Shown piece by piece: positions 9,184-33,777 of a stretch of DNA of 41,317 bases. Both the position numbers and the translations under genes were made by a program. The notes below the pieces were generated by a model that worked only from the letters and a program-made list of their open reading frames with translations, was not told the origin of the DNA and made no database searches. Each line of letters begins with the position of its first letter. Position 1 is the stretch's first letter. The stretch comes from Escherichia phage vB_EcoS_HSE2: sequence record MG252615.1; one strand, written 5' to 3'.

Positions 9184-9675
9184 TTATTTGCCGTGGTTTT
9201 CGTGGAAACCGTACTTAACTTCTGCAGCCTTTCTCGCGGCTATTGCGTCGTCGATAGTTTCGAAACGTCCGAGATGAATTACTCGCTTCTTAACTTTTAT
9301 CTCAGCTCGCCATTTTCCGCGGCTTTTATCAAACCTAACACCCGTCACACCGGACGTGTTGTTGCGAGCTAAAGATAAATTACGGCTGTTCTCTTTTCGG
9401 GTTGTTTTCCTCAAATTAGAAAGAAGATTATTTTCTCGATTATGGTCGATATGGTCTATCTCCTCTCCGGGTTGAAGTTTATTTTCAGGCTTCATCATAT
9501 CCCATATAATTCTATGCGCCTGAAATGTCCTTCCGTGTAAACGGACGCACACATAACCCCAATTACGAACAGCAGCAACTTCGCTCCCGGCGGGCGCGCG
9601 ATTGCTGTTAGTTACGCGCCAATATAACTTACCAGTGTTGGTGTCATACCTAAAATAATCTCCCCATTTAATCAT
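9184..9675 (-). CDS. HNH homing endonuclease with C-terminal AP2 DNA-binding domain
   Basis: HNH motif IDHIDHNRENN...N; AP2-like GVTGVRFDKSRGKWRAEIKV...HLGRFETIDDAIAARKAAEVKYG; ATGA overlap with upstream gene. Confidence 0.75.
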   Translation of the reverse strand: MIKWGDYFRYDTNTGKLYWRVTNSNRAPAGSEVAAVRNWGYVCVRLHGRTFQAHRIIWDMMKPENKLQPGEEIDHIDHNRENNLLSNLRKTTRKENSRNLSLARNNTSGVTGVRFDKSRGKWRAEIKVKKRVIHLGRFETIDDAIAARKAAEVKYGFHENHGK

Positions 9676-10928
9676 TCCAAATCCTCCTCTGTTACCCCTT
9701 TCCACTCAGGTCGTTTGTCGTCTGCTGCGGCGATTGTCGGTCGACCAGGATTACGGATAATGAATTCCGTCAGTTCTTCTTCTGGGATAACTTTCACGGC
9801 TGCTGTAGGGGTAATGATTGACTTAGCCATAACTTTATCTCCAAATTTAGCAATAACTGCCTCTGGGTCCGCCCAGGAGCGATTGCCACCCCGCCCTTCA
9901 ACCAGTTTGTACCCCGGCACTTTCTTACCGGAATGCAACGCAGTAGCCATAGCTTTTTCAACCTTGTCGATGTGCTGGCGCAACAACGGCAACTTCTCAT
10001 ACTCAGCTACTAGTTGCTCCGGCGTAAGCTCAAGTGCAAAGTCGTCCTCCAGTTCTTCCGCCAGCACAGAATTAACCGTCTTTGTACGCGCGGCGCATTG
10101 TTCTGAGAACCGACACCACTGACAACCATCGACCGACGGTTTGAAATCCGACGCTTTAAGGTTCTTCTTACCGCGGAAATAAGCATCAAGCGCTAACAGC
10201 GCGCGTTTCTGTGCGAACTTAGCGAACAGTTCCAGACCTTCAACCGAGATGTCCCACTCCGACGCACCGCCCGCGTATGGCTGGAAGATGACCAGACGAA
10301 CCACGGTGATGTTATAACGTCTCTTGAGTCGGCGATAAACACCAAGAGCGTAAAGCATGAGCTGCTTGTTTTCTTTCGCTTCGACACGATGCCGTCCAGT
10401 TTTCAGGTCGCCGATAATGAGCATGTGCTCGTCGGAGTTAGCCAGTTCCCGCACGGCAACAAGGTCAGCCGTTCCGAACGTCTCAACGCCTTCGTACCCT
10501 GGGTGCAATACCTCAGTAAGATTGACGCGCATTTCCAGCTTGGCGTATGTCGCTACATCGATAATCGCTTTGCAGTAGTCGGTGTACTTTCGCACCTGTT
10601 CAATCATGTCCGCCGTAATCAGTACCGCACCTTTCATCGGGCTGATAAGCGCCTTAATCTGGCCTTTACCCTCATCCAGCACGTAAGTACCGACTTCGCG
10701 CTCTAACGGCAACGCAGTTCCGCGAATATAAGCGTTGAGGTGGACCTCCGCTATTGTGTGGCACGCGGTCCCTGTAACGGCGGATTTACCAGACGTGTTG
10801 GGGATATCTTTTTCGCATGCCAGTGATGCAGCACAACTCAGCCACTTTTTAGCACCTGACGGCGACAGTAAGGCGTGCACGTCATTATTGCCGCCGCGTT
10901 CTTTTAAAATCATGCCCTGTTCTCCCAC
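9672..10928 (-). CDS. PD-(D/E)XK nuclease, Cas4/RecB-like, with 4-Cys cluster
   Basis: DLKTGRH...E.K...QLMLYALG nuclease motifs; N-terminal Cys plus C-terminal CQWCRFSEQC. Confidence 0.6.
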   Translation of the reverse strand: MGEQGMILKERGGNNDVHALLSPSGAKKWLSCAASLACEKDIPNTSGKSAVTGTACHTIAEVHLNAYIRGTALPLEREVGTYVLDEGKGQIKALISPMKGAVLITADMIEQVRKYTDYCKAIIDVATYAKLEMRVNLTEVLHPGYEGVETFGTADLVAVRELANSDEHMLIIGDLKTGRHRVEAKENKQLMLYALGVYRRLKRRYNITVVRLVIFQPYAGGASEWDISVEGLELFAKFAQKRALLALDAYFRGKKNLKASDFKPSVDGCQWCRFSEQCAARTKTVNSVLAEELEDDFALELTPEQLVAEYEKLPLLRQHIDKVEKAMATALHSGKKVPGYKLVEGRGGNRSWADPEAVIAKFGDKVMAKSIITPTAAVKVIPEEELTEFIIRNPGRPTIAAADDKRPEWKGVTEEDLE

Positions 10929-14857: not shown

Positions 14858-14886
14858 TTGACATTATGAAAATCTTCGTTTAAGAT
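14858..14886 (+). promoter_or_regulatory. Sigma70-type promoter pointing into the noncoding region
   Basis: TTGACA, 17 nt, TAAGAT; divergent from the 14814..14842 promoter. Confidence 0.45.
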
Positions 14887-16811: not shown

Positions 16812-17035
16812 CCCCCGCAAAAGCACGTGCGCTGTTACGCCGCAAGGGGATTCTCGATGAGGTGGACATCCTTGTAGAGAGATACGGCATCCACATGATA
16901 GGTCGCCAGTCGAAAGGTGATATGCGTTGGATGGCGGGTATCCCTGGTACGCCAGGCGTGTCATACGGCGACACATTAACCCATGCGGTCCATACTTACA
17001 TTATTGAGTCGGTGTTAGGAGAAACCAATGAGTAA
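16808..17035 (+). CDS. Hypothetical protein (75 aa)
   Basis: ORF track. Confidence 0.4.
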   Translation: MTPAKARALLRRKGILDEVDILVERYGIHMIGRQSKGDMRWMAGIPGTPGVSYGDTLTHAVHTYIIESVLGETNE

Positions 17036-17384
17036 CAAAAACGAAGTATTCAAGTACCTGATTGACCGGCTACGGCAGCAGGTAATTAACAACCCATACA
17101 AACAACAGTGTGAAGACCTGGCGCATGAGGTGCAGTCACTTAAGAATCAGTTACGTGATGCTTCGGTGCAGATTAAGGAGCTACATCTGGCGCTGGTTAA
17201 GGCTGCCGGTGATGTAGAGGCTTACAAACTTATCCGCAAGGGTGGGTACGTCAATGGCGGTCGGCGATATGTAGTAGGTGAGCACGGGCTGGAGCAATCC
17301 GGTTGCCAAATAGGTGAGCATGATTGGGTGTTAGACGCCGACGAGGATTATTTTGTGTGCCGCAGATGTGGGGAAACGACATGA
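17028..17384 (+). CDS. Hypothetical coiled-coil protein with C-terminal CxxC zinc ribbon (118 aa)
   Basis: Heptad-like region and CRRCGE. Confidence 0.4.
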   Translation: MSNKNEVFKYLIDRLRQQVINNPYKQQCEDLAHEVQSLKNQLRDASVQIKELHLALVKAAGDVEAYKLIRKGGYVNGGRRYVVGEHGLEQSGCQIGEHDWVLDADEDYFVCRRCGETT

Positions 17385-17584
17385 CCAGCATCTTATTTAT
17401 ATGGGTACTGTCCGCGGGCCAGATGCAACTCGCGGCAGCAGAAACGTTTTACTCGATGGAGGCGTGCCAGTCAGCGGCACGTGCCGCAGAGAACGCGCAC
17501 TTTCTGTTTCAGGGTGATAAGCCCAACGATTCAGAGGTACGCGCTATCTGCTCACTTAAGCGACTTGGTAAACAGGAGAAGTGA
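17381..17584 (+). CDS. Hypothetical small protein with hydrophobic N-terminus (67 aa)
   Basis: ATG at 17381 overlaps upstream stop (ATGA). Confidence 0.35.
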   Translation: MTSILFIWVLSAGQMQLAAAETFYSMEACQSAARAAENAHFLFQGDKPNDSEVRAICSLKRLGKQEK

Positions 17585-17586
17585 TT

Positions 17587-17841
17587 ATGGTACAGAGATA
17601 TAACGCTTCATATAACGACTATTATGAAAACGATGCCGGTGAGTTTGTAAGTTATGAAGACTATGCGAAACTCGAAGCAGATTTTAAGGCGTACAAAGCC
17701 TCTGCTTACATGGTTGCAGAGCAGTATGCGGGGGTGATTAAGGAACTCGAAGCCGAGTTACAGAAATACAAAGACCAGTTCCCGGATTACGTCGAGTGCG
17801 CGAACTGTGGGTCAGTTACACATGTGGAAGAGGTGGAGTGA
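17587..17841 (+). CDS. Small Zn-ribbon protein, paralog A (MVQRY...YEDYAKLEA)
   Basis: AGGAGAA Shine-Dalgarno; shares N-terminal motif and a 15-nt start-region repeat with the next gene. Confidence 0.45.
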   Translation: MVQRYNASYNDYYENDAGEFVSYEDYAKLEADFKAYKASAYMVAEQYAGVIKELEAELQKYKDQFPDYVECANCGSVTHVEEVE

Positions 17842-18044
17842 TGGTACAGAGATATGAAAACGACCACGGCGATATGTTTCAGGCCACGGAAGGTGATTTT
17901 GTCCGCTATGAAGATTACGCAAAACTTGAGGCCGCCGTTATCGCATTACTCGTGGATATAAATCGACGCTACCCGGGTGAAGGATTTAAGTGCCCGTTAA
18001 TACTTAAACTTGCGGAGATTGTGGAACATGAGCCTCGCAACTGA
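17841..18044 (+). CDS. Small protein, paralog B (MVQRY...YEDYAKLEA)
   Basis: Starts with the same ATGGTACAGAGATAT as paralog A. Confidence 0.45.
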   Translation: MVQRYENDHGDMFQATEGDFVRYEDYAKLEAAVIALLVDINRRYPGEGFKCPLILKLAEIVEHEPRN

Positions 18045-18309
18045 CATCCTGAAACGAAGCGGCCTTGCGCCGCTGTCGCCTAAAGTTAAGACGCGAGCGC
18101 GTAACGCAACTTACAATGAACTGGCAGAACGGCGTAAAGCTGTCCGCGCCTGTGGATTCCAGAACGGGAAGGCCGTGAATCTCGGTGAGTTTAAAACACA
18201 GGAACGCGCAGCTATCGCTAATCGGCTATTTAATTACTGGAAATCGCTGGGGTACGATGATATTCCAACGAAACCGCAGAGACGACAATACATCTGGAGA
18301 CATAAATAA
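18028..18309 (+). CDS. Hypothetical basic protein
   Basis: ORF track; start site uncertain (18010 or 18028). Confidence 0.35.
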   Translation: MSLATDILKRSGLAPLSPKVKTRARNATYNELAERRKAVRACGFQNGKAVNLGEFKTQERAAIANRLFNYWKSLGYDDIPTKPQRRQYIWRHK

Positions 18310-18384
18310 ACCGTTATTAAGATAATTCTTACACGTGGTATCCTCCAGTTACCGCATACTTAATACGCACCTGGAGGATTCATC

Positions 18385-18693
18385 TTGGATAAATTTACTG
18401 AAACAGTGACAGGCTGGCTTCTCGCTGCCGCACTCGCCGGTGGGGTAATAGGACTAAGGCAACATAAGTCCGTTATTTCTGGCCCCATCGACGGCTTCTG
18501 CTTTATCGCAACTGGCTTCACCTGCGCCGTGTTTGGCGCACCTCTTGCCGCCCAATGGTTCGGCATTACGGGTGAGCGTGAGATAGCCGGCCTCGGATTT
18601 ATCATCGCTATTCTCTGGATGCCTATCTATTCCCGCCTCTCTGGTATCGTTGCCGGAGAATACATCGCACGCCGAGGGGGTACAGATGAATGA
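18385..18693 (+). CDS. Putative holin (three hydrophobic segments, TTG start)
   Basis: GGAGGA then 6 nt then TTG; three predicted TM-like stretches; just upstream of endolysin. Confidence 0.45.
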   Translation: MDKFTETVTGWLLAAALAGGVIGLRQHKSVISGPIDGFCFIATGFTCAVFGAPLAAQWFGITGEREIAGLGFIIAILWMPIYSRLSGIVAGEYIARRGGTDE

Positions 18694-33306: not shown

Positions 33307-33777
33307 CTACTCATGGTTTTCATGGAAACCGTATTTACTCTCGGCGGCTTTACGCGCAGCAACCGCTACATCAAAATCGTCGTAAAGCCCTAAATGCACT
33401 TGTTTGTAGTTAACTTTTATAAACGCGCGCCACTTACCCGCGGCTTTGTGGAAACTTACGCCTGTAGCCCCGGATTTATTTATCTTTCGCATAGTTTTAT
33501 TTTTACTGTTCCCTGTATTGTCGGTGGCGCGTAGATTTTCTATTCTATTGTCTAGCCTGTTATGGTTTATGTGGTCTATTTGAGTTTTCCTGTCTAAGTT
33601 GCATTTATTATAAAGACACCATGCTATGCGGTGGACATACACTGTTTTACCACCCATACCGCAGCACAGATAACCTCTTACACCAACCGTACCAACCTCA
33701 GCACCAGTAGATAACCTGGTAACCCTCCCAGTCTCAGGGCAGTATTTAAATTGTTTTGAAACATCAAGATATTTCAT
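33307..33777 (-). CDS. HNH homing endonuclease with AP2 domain (paralog of 9184..9675)
   Basis: HNH motif IDHINHNRLDNRIEN; AP2-like GATGVSFHKAAGKWRAFIKV...AARKAAESKYGFHENHE. Confidence 0.75.
   Translation of the reverse strand: MKYLDVSKQFKYCPETGRVTRLSTGAEVGTVGVRGYLCCGMGGKTVYVHRIAWCLYNKCNLDRKTQIDHINHNRLDNRIENLRATDNTGNSKNKTMRKINKSGATGVSFHKAAGKWRAFIKVNYKQVHLGLYDDFDVAVAARKAAESKYGFHENHE

Follow-up and report, generated by a model that had tools for sequence, protein, structure and literature searches.

The tandem paralogues of the Staphylococcus aureus lpl cluster carry variable centres around a conserved unit formed by the 3′ end of one gene, the junction and the 5′ start of the next (PMC2568036). 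Tandem paralogues likewise recombine with one another in the evolution of the esaG immunity genes (PMC9484751). Phage accessory regions hold variable gene sets between conserved flanks, and many of these genes act in counter-defence (bioRxiv 10.1101/2023.04.06.535777). In T4-type phages, modules are shuffled via short conserved motifs (PMC2839356, PMC4122927), and the internal proteins of T-even phages share only a capsid targeting sequence (PMC3012670). Here we describe two adjacent small open reading frames (ORFs), A and B, of Escherichia phage vB_EcoS_HSE2, located in the 41,317 nucleotides (nt) of sequence record MG252615.1, the whole of which is referred to below as the window. Both belong to a family of small proteins in which a head containing a hypervariable cassette is joined at a hinge to one of several tails. 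Heads, helix inserts and tails of this family occur in many combinations among related phages.

Like the lpl and esaG clusters, A and B are adjacent paralogues with a variable middle between conserved ends and a conserved two-gene unit across their junction, and recombination between copies appears to yield chimeras and changes in copy number. Unlike those clusters, the genes of the A/B family are tiny (59-110 codons) and are found in a lytic phage in only 0-2 copies; moreover, their variable part is a cassette of 12-25 codons within one small domain, and their tails are distinct, non-homologous modules and not copies that have diverged. The A/B slot resembles other phage accessory regions in being bounded by two conserved genes and in having a varying and dispensable content, but it varies within genes as well as between genes. 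As in the T4-type and T-even examples, short conserved sequences flank the variable segments at the exchange points and a conserved N-terminus is carried by diverse small proteins, whereas the conserved sequences of A and B are the coding framework of a folded domain and not promoter-terminator motifs or a cleaved leader. The locus is distinctive in its scale and in the position of its boundaries: what is exchanged is a cassette within a single mini-domain of a protein of 60-90 residues, and the limits of this cassette are framework codons of that domain. The protein family is undescribed. We found no description of these genes in the literature on HSE2, on the BASEL Kagunavirus phages, on virion proteomics of the genus or on the variable regions of Guernseyvirinae, and the family motifs are absent from the supplements of a screen of phage accessory genes (bioRxiv 10.1101/2023.04.06.535777) and of its follow-up.

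Modular organization of the family

Database searches returned 417 clusters with A and 132 with B, nearly all of them from contigs of at most ~46 kb. The family genes share a common plan, in which M-V-Q-R-Y is followed by a type-specific segment, by the sequence G-x-(W/Y/F)-V-x-Y-E-D-Y-A-K-L-E and by a tail. The conserved framework comprises V2, R4, Y5, G18, an aromatic residue at position 20, V21, Y23, E24, D25, Y26 and L29, while the variable segment, of 15-29 residues, is wholly different between types and falls into ~33 discrete types. When 302 proteins were split at the hinge, ~33 head clusters and ~10 tail families were obtained, and 18 of the 33 heads were found with at least two tail families in this set, which was gathered by searching with A and B. 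Six different tails, that of A among them, occur with the head of B (ENDHGDMFQATEG...). Reciprocally, the tail of B (AVIALL...HEPRN) is near-invariant over ~100 of the listed clusters (defined at 90% identity), in which it follows at least 20 heads. A-type proteins also vary between the hinge and ELQKYK, where helix inserts add 0, 7, 17, 25, 28, 32 or 57 residues, and some of them have C-terminal extensions fused on. Head types are not tied to one of the two gene positions: that of B occupies the first gene in RP180, that of A occupies the second gene in L034, and a third head (EVRGTELGG) is a second-gene head in hz69 and a first-gene head in EC3-1. We are highly confident in an evolutionary description of A and B as an old, recombining modular pair.

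The products of the family are acidic (median isoelectric point [pI] of 4.5), with a pI of 4.3 and a net charge of −11 for A and a pI of 4.8 for B, and Gly, Asp, Glu, Val and Tyr abound in their heads. The two ORFs meet in the sequence TGATG, in which the TGA of A and the ATG of B (17841-17843) share one base, and Shine-Dalgarno-like purine-rich sites lie 5′ of both starts (AGGAGA at 17574-17579 for A and GAGGTGGAG at 17830-17838 for B). A matches PHROG 29624 (E=1.7e-25), and B matches PHROG 23941 (E=1.3e-15) and PHROG 23083 (E=4.3e-14), all three of unknown function; the first 32 residues of B also match phrog_29624 (E=2e-5). B is identical (100%) to HSE2_gp021. ORFs A and B are probably two real, translationally coupled genes whose small, acidic products belong to a single modular family of accessory proteins of phages.

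Shared N-terminus and age of the duplication

A sequence-only reading of the window had proposed that A and B are tandem paralogues produced by a recent duplication with divergence, the first copy of which keeps a C-terminal CxxC. The features on which it relied, namely the two ORFs, their MVQRY starts, the shared motif and the CxxC of A (C71-A-N-C74, against a single Cys in B), were all confirmed, positions included. The 15-mer ATGGTACAGAGATAT, which encodes MVQRY, has two exact copies in the window, at 17587 and 17841, and no others. By chance, 0.06 matches would be expected when as many as two mismatches are tolerated, and none of 100 shuffled sequences reached two or more matches. Both ORFs also contain the motif G(E/D)FVxYEDYAKLEA (GEFVSYEDYAKLEA in A and GDFVRYEDYAKLEA in B), in a 41-nt direct repeat (17638-17678 and 17892-17932; 78% identity) that is in register at a spacing of 254 nt. 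BLASTP aligned A with B over residues 1-31 (18/31 identities, E=3e-11) and detected nothing after residue 31. A hidden Markov model (HMM) of alignment A4, which includes only distant members and none from the window, singled out A and B when run against every ORF of the window (E=2.5e-13 and 6.9e-12; next best, 1.4). Paralogy thus holds over the first 31 codons, well beyond the first few residues, and lapses over all later ones, where the tails are unalignable.

The proposed recency was not supported. Over codons 18-31, A and B show 8.0 synonymous differences on 8.3 synonymous sites, that is, synonymous divergence is saturated, against 2.0 nonsynonymous differences on 33.7 sites (Nei-Gojobori method). 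Their cassettes are unrelated, with 1 of 12 residues in common over codons 6-17. The head of B is 100% identical at the protein level to the second-gene head of fTaEco01, whose tail differs, and the head of A recurs in the second gene of L034 on a B-type tail, each head being closer to relatives in other phages than to its neighbour in the window. The two tails are likewise different modules, each joined to many other heads elsewhere, which also removes the idea that B has lost a CxxC kept by A, since the tail of B is an unrelated module. A comparison of copy numbers revealed two copies in 20 of 46 scorable loci, so the pair is widespread in the genus, which argues against a recent event. As judged from these sequences, the duplication behind the A/B pair is old. 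The identical 15-mer can be attributed to a conserved pentapeptide written with strongly preferred codons (GTA in 38/60 and AGA in 47/60 genes); by our estimate, ~15% of pairs of members would be fully identical over these codons. A lesson for annotation is that an identical start is by itself no ground for naming such pairs recent duplicates.

We surveyed codon use in 60 distinct gene sequences and estimated the ratio of nonsynonymous to synonymous substitution (dN/dS) by the Nei-Gojobori method. Synonymous variants abound in the conserved motifs, including TAC/TAT, GAC/GAT, all four CTN codons, GTA/GTG/GTT and AGA/CGA/CGC/AGG. The proportions of synonymous (pS) and nonsynonymous (pN) differences were 0.71 and 0.25 in the hinge over all pairs (dN/dS ~0.13), 0.29 and 0.063 in the cassette within types (dN/dS 0.18), and 0.235 and 0.058 in the tail of A (dN/dS 0.21). 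This synonymous freedom and these dN/dS estimates indicate that the framework is kept by selection at the protein level, that each head type is constrained and that the duplication is ancient. A non-coding artefact was rejected on the basis of the behaviour of synonymous sites and of the variation in cassette length.

Breakpoints and proposed recombination

Pairwise comparisons locate abrupt changes in homology within the two genes. B and the second gene of fTaEco01 share ~98% identity from 5′ of the start codon to AAACTKGAG in the hinge and are unrelated thereafter. With the second gene of L034, B is alike up to ATGGTRCAGAGATATG, differs in the cassette and is again 93-95% identical from the end of the hinge. 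Apart from a few substitutions near its 3′ end, A differs from the first gene of BUCT823 only by a precise 75-nt indel, which has the direct repeat AACTCGAAGC (17669-17678 and 17744-17753) at its borders. In many relatives, homology ends at ~17600 and restarts at 17744, and the block 17744-17857 retains 93-98% identity in loci that have different cassettes on both sides. On this sequence evidence, the breakpoints fall in the MVQRY and YEDYAKLE codons, in the two-gene conserved unit and in the 10-nt AACTCGAAGC repeat of A. Several loci have a chimeric structure, including single-copy loci with a head on a B-type tail (L021, L036, L045, L046 and L048), in-frame A-B fusions (L026 and P0266) and B-type tails that end in the last codons of A (L040 and P0060); these chimeras are consistent with crossing-over at the conserved motifs. 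ORF A also contains an internal direct repeat (17669-17698 and 17744-17773; 77% identity at a spacing of 75 nt) encoding KLEADFKAYK and ELEAELQKYK, respectively, because of which the 25-codon insert seems to have arisen by an internal duplication of the first part of the tail, followed by divergence.

The conserved sequences may serve as sites of homologous or microhomology-mediated recombination, and modules would be exchanged by such annealing during co-infection. The Gp2.5-like annealing protein and the exonuclease encoded by the phage itself could catalyse this exchange. A diversity-generating retroelement was considered as another source of variation and rejected on the behaviour of synonymous sites and because no cassette region has a repeat partner apart from the other gene, the cassettes vary in length as well as at all bases, and the large ORFs scanned, in a search of the window for a reverse transcriptase that was not exhaustive, were replication and nuclease genes.

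Predicted structure

AlphaFold2, run with the family alignments, modelled A confidently, at a mean predicted local distance difference test (pLDDT) score of 86.5, with strands at residues 4-8, 11-14 and 20-21, a helix at 23-64 and strands at 68-70 and 77-79. A is thus predicted to consist of a beta-meander head, a 42-residue helix and a C-terminal hairpin that carries C71, C74 and H79. In the model of B (mean pLDDT of 69.8), the same head is followed by helices at 23-43 and 52-62, that is, by a helix-loop-helix tail. By inspection, the helix of A has a continuous 3-4 spacing of hydrophobic residues (Y26-L29-F33-Y36-A40-V43-Y47-V50-L54-L58-Y61), and this unbroken pattern points to a coiled-coil oligomer. 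We found no fold match for A or B.

The three residues C71, C74 and H79 do not vary among 52 sequences. The retroviral-type CCHC zinc knuckle has the form C-x2-C-x4-H-x4-C. The tail of A (17797-17838; C-A-N-C-G-S-V-T-H-V-E-G-V-E, the last residue being the end of the protein) has the zinc-knuckle spacing C-x2-C-G-x3-H on a predicted beta hairpin, but the position of the fourth ligand is taken by the C-terminal Glu84 instead of Cys. We did not assign A to zf-CCHC, given Glu84 at this position and no Pfam zf-CCHC match at E≤1. The Lar restriction alleviation protein (PF14354) was also rejected, since its score of 13.4 bits (E=0.095), over residues 57-80 only, is below the Pfam gathering threshold of 28.6.

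Wider distribution of the head domain

A profile search of 1.84 billion representative proteins returned 52 representatives at E≤1e-3, some of which resemble A only in the head and hinge. The A4 profile, made from distant heads, added 253 further clusters with dozens more tails and the same combinatorial pattern. The domain is present in Wifcevirus myophages, sometimes twice per protein, in siphophage ASO78B and in the early-left operon of a P22/lambda-like prophage, between erf/ssb and int. In all three settings its neighbours are small unannotated genes, and these proteins are named only 'hypothetical'. The prophage protein P0354 (85 amino acids [aa]; L065:4001-4258) lies in an operon that runs from an N peptide through Erf and SSB to an integrase and is found in at least 24 contigs, some larger than 1 Mb. 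The head-hinge unit occurs twice in one polypeptide, each time followed by a coiled coil, in Wifcevirus phages and in some metagenomic proteins (L064:2001-2429 [Mansfield_104], P0261, P0264 and P0287), and a tblastn search of a phage collection with P0261 gave no match. A W..W.GGENPVPG...DIIAYRV domain, which forms the end of some of these double-domain proteins, recurs as a fusion in the Kagunavirus A-type proteins P0164, P0241 and P0259.

Genomic setting and features of the locus

The DNA surrounding A and B is 85-92% identical to that of Kagunavirus coliphages (Guernseyvirinae). The pair sits in a rightward block of small genes, between a leftward replication module (helicase-primase, exonuclease, Gp2.5-like single-strand annealing protein, DNA polymerase and helicase) and the holin/endolysin cassette, and it recurs at the same position in Kagunavirus relatives. 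We compared this slot in 12 annotated phages and in 50 viral contigs anchored on the gene for a 67-aa protein that lies upstream; this protein is 66-98% identical in 47 of the 50 contigs, and the downstream MSLATDILK gene is also present. Among 46 loci in which both flanks are recognizable, 20 contain two family genes, 14 contain one and 12 contain none, with other genes filling the slot in some loci. Jerseyvirus-like Salmonella phages mostly have zero copies. With its conserved bounding genes and a content that is variable and dispensable among close relatives, the slot has the organization of a phage accessory region. In the ~20 two-gene loci, the two heads of one genome are always of different types, which, with ~30 types, is not significant by our estimate.

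The coordinates of the features of the locus are collected in Table 1.

Table 1. Features of the A/B locus in the window.
Feature	Position	Strand	Description
Upstream flank of the slot	17381..17584	+	67 aa; PHROG 3766; conserved
ORF A	17587..17841	+	84 aa; GTG-start ORF 17581..17841, ATG at 17587; TGA stop 17839-17841
Conserved start of A (MVQRY)	17587..17601	+	First beta strand (predicted); apparent 5′ limit of cassette exchange, homology of many relatives stopping at ~17600-17602
Hypervariable cassette of A	17602..17637	+	Codons 6-17, NASYNDYYENDA; cassette type shared with the L034 second gene
Framework and hinge of A	17638..17679	+	G-E-F-V-S-Y-E-D-Y-A-K-L-E-A; apparent 3′ limit of cassette exchange; synonymous sites free, amino acids kept
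Helix insert of A	17669..17743	+	75 nt (25 codons); flanked by direct repeat AACTCGAAGC, placement ambiguous within the repeat
Two-gene conserved unit	17744..17857	+	Tail of A (ELEAELQKYKDQFPDYVECANCGSVTHVEEVE), TGATG and MVQRY start of B; 93-98% identity in L006, L011 and L012
C71-x2-C74-G-x3-H79 of A	17797..17823	+	Turn of predicted beta hairpin
ORF B	17841..18044	+	67 aa; GTG-start ORF 17796..18044, ATG at 17841; stop 18042-18044
Conserved start of B (MVQRY)	17841..17855	+	Second ATGGTACAGAGATAT copy
Hypervariable cassette of B	17856..17891	+	Codons 6-17, ENDHGDMFQATE; type found with six tail families; first gene in RP180
Framework and hinge of B	17892..17933	+	G-D-F-V-R-Y-E-D-Y-A-K-L-E-A; break against fTaEco01 inside AAACTKGAG
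Tail module of B	17934..18041	+	AVIALLVDINRRYPGEGFKCPLILKLAEIVEHEPRN; near-invariant in ~100 listed clusters with at least 20 heads
Downstream flank of the slot	18028..18309	+	93 aa, MSLATDILK...; PHROG 9632; conserved; 17-nt overlap with the end of B

A palindrome, TTACACATGTGGAA (core CACATGTG), is located at 17816-17829, at the end of ORF A and within the conserved inter-gene unit. Upstream of the slot, a gene at 17028-17384 (+ strand) encodes a coiled-coil protein of 118 aa, labelled 'cell division protein' in some relatives, that ends in GCQIGEHDWVLDADEDYFVCRRCGETT. This Cys/His module, apparently a further mobile module of the region, is also fused to the C-terminus of the A-type proteins P0122, P0142, P0148, P0153 and P0173 of other phages, and AV104 (P0121), L014 and L015 have a fusion with a related CxH...CxxCG peptide. 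On the other side, a 9-bp stem (AUCCUCCAG ... CUGGAGGAU; 18340-18379, + strand) immediately precedes the first lysis gene (TTG at 18385). The Shine-Dalgarno sequence GGAGGA falls within the 3′ arm of the stem, the folding z-score is −2.3, and 93-95% conservation is maintained over 18315-18400 even between loci that differ on either side of this segment. This stem may control the translation of the holin.

The best sigma-70-like site of the region (14858-14886, + strand; TTGACA-17-TAAGAT, 10/12 matches) heads the rightward small-gene block, opposite the replication module; overall, sigma-70-like sites are no more numerous than in shuffled sequence. The window also contains two paralogous HNH endonuclease genes, both of PHROG 99 (9187-9705 and 33310-33777, both on the − strand), one in the replication module and the other beside a DNA repair exonuclease gene.

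Discussion

An early role in host interaction or counter-defence is suggested by the genomic setting, acidity, dispensability and type diversity of the family, all of which fit. The proteins would be cytoplasmic coiled-coil oligomers in which the head provides a specificity-determining binding surface for a variable target of the host or of a competitor, and the tail would supply oligomerization or a second activity. A- and B-type proteins would then act as early accessory factors in host takeover or counter-defence. We put forward this functional description, that of an early accessory binder in host interaction, tentatively, as a possible rather than a probable one. A bolder proposal, to which we give rather little credence, is that the MVQRY...YEDYxxL mini-domain is a natural binder scaffold whose more than 30 loop cassettes recognize polymorphic host immunity or competitor proteins, and that phages mix heads, helices of various lengths and dozens of tails through recombination in the framework codons, making up a combinatorial head-stalk-tail toolkit for counter-defence in several enterobacterial phage groups. 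In Bas70-76, seven phages with many other differences, sensitivity to Old has been reported to be variable.

Several points weigh against our interpretation of the locus and of its function. The table of heads by tails is biased by the way in which its sequences were gathered. Discrete cassette types could reflect old neutral divergence and recombination rather than target-driven selection. The structural model of B is of only medium confidence, and searches of Pfam, NCBIfam and PDB sequences with A, B, the flanking genes and the distant relatives gave only sub-threshold coiled-coil noise. Finally, the part assigned to the recombinase of the phage in the exchange is purely our inference.

The neutral explanation can be extended to the whole family, which would then comprise ordinary small proteins, such as regulators or assembly helpers, whose tolerant loops have diverged neutrally and been reshuffled, with neither a role in specificity nor an arms race. 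Mosaicism is general in phage accessory regions, the within-type dN/dS of 0.18 reflects constraint and not positive selection, and phages with zero copies are viable. Against such an account stand the ~33 discrete, length-variable heads that are set on a rigid framework, each conserved within its type, that reassort freely with tails and that are enriched in acidic, Gly and aromatic residues. It can also be argued that, the genes being dispensable, the persistence of so many types is better explained by a type-specific benefit. We regard purely neutral reshuffling as rather unlikely. A different reading of the conserved N-terminus is that it constitutes a targeting signal by which small proteins of diverse kinds enter the virion and are injected together with the DNA. 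This would account for its presence on otherwise diverse small proteins encoded just 5′ of the lysis and morphogenesis genes, and the T-even internal proteins, inhibitors of defence that are diverse except for a conserved targeting sequence (PMC3012670), offer a precedent; our literature search found no virion proteomics for this phage group. Yet the domain spans myophages, siphophages and the early-left operon of a P22/lambda-like prophage, a range that would be unlikely for a signal dependent on a single type of capsid assembly. Furthermore, the domain is internal or duplicated in P0261, P0264 and P0287, and it is predicted to be a folded unit of 30 residues with a hypervariable insert rather than a short leader. 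Virion targeting is, in our view, improbable.

The two other explanations bear on the repeats themselves. The identical 15-mer starts, the in-register 41-nt repeat and the adjacency of the genes would be expected from a recent tandem duplication of one small gene that diverged by point mutation, the first copy keeping an ancestral CxxC, but this scenario is already contradicted by the saturated synonymous sites of codons 18-31, by cassettes and tails that do not align, by heads and tails that are each far closer to relatives in other phages, and by the frequency of the pair arrangement in the genus; it is highly improbable. Alternatively, the repeats could be DNA or RNA elements, that is, signals for translation initiation or recombination, with an incidental similarity between the proteins. 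The exact 15-mer at both starts, the biased codon choice in codons 2-5 and the coincidence of breakpoints with the motifs are compatible with this view. The family, however, varies at synonymous positions while keeping its amino acids, as reflected in the low dN/dS of the hinge, V(K/Q)RY lies 2-5 residues inside the protein in distant relatives, and an Rfam search of the whole window gave no match. A DNA or RNA element is contradicted as the sole explanation and has next to no chance of being correct in that form, but the motifs can still be recombination substrates. An old modular pair that recombines within its coding framework remains the reading that we retain.

Our results define an unannotated domain of ~30 residues, absent from Pfam and NCBIfam and represented by several hundred clusters at 90% identity in coliphages, Salmonella phages and at least one prophage. 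Synthetic biology already employs Kagunaviruses as chassis (PMC11990801), and with such small phages, swaps of heads and tails could directly test whether the cassettes determine specificity for hosts or defence systems. If our reading is true, the A/B locus would provide a compact, sequence-defined case of sub-gene recombination, in which cassette, helix insert and tail are separate exchangeable units bounded by coding motifs.

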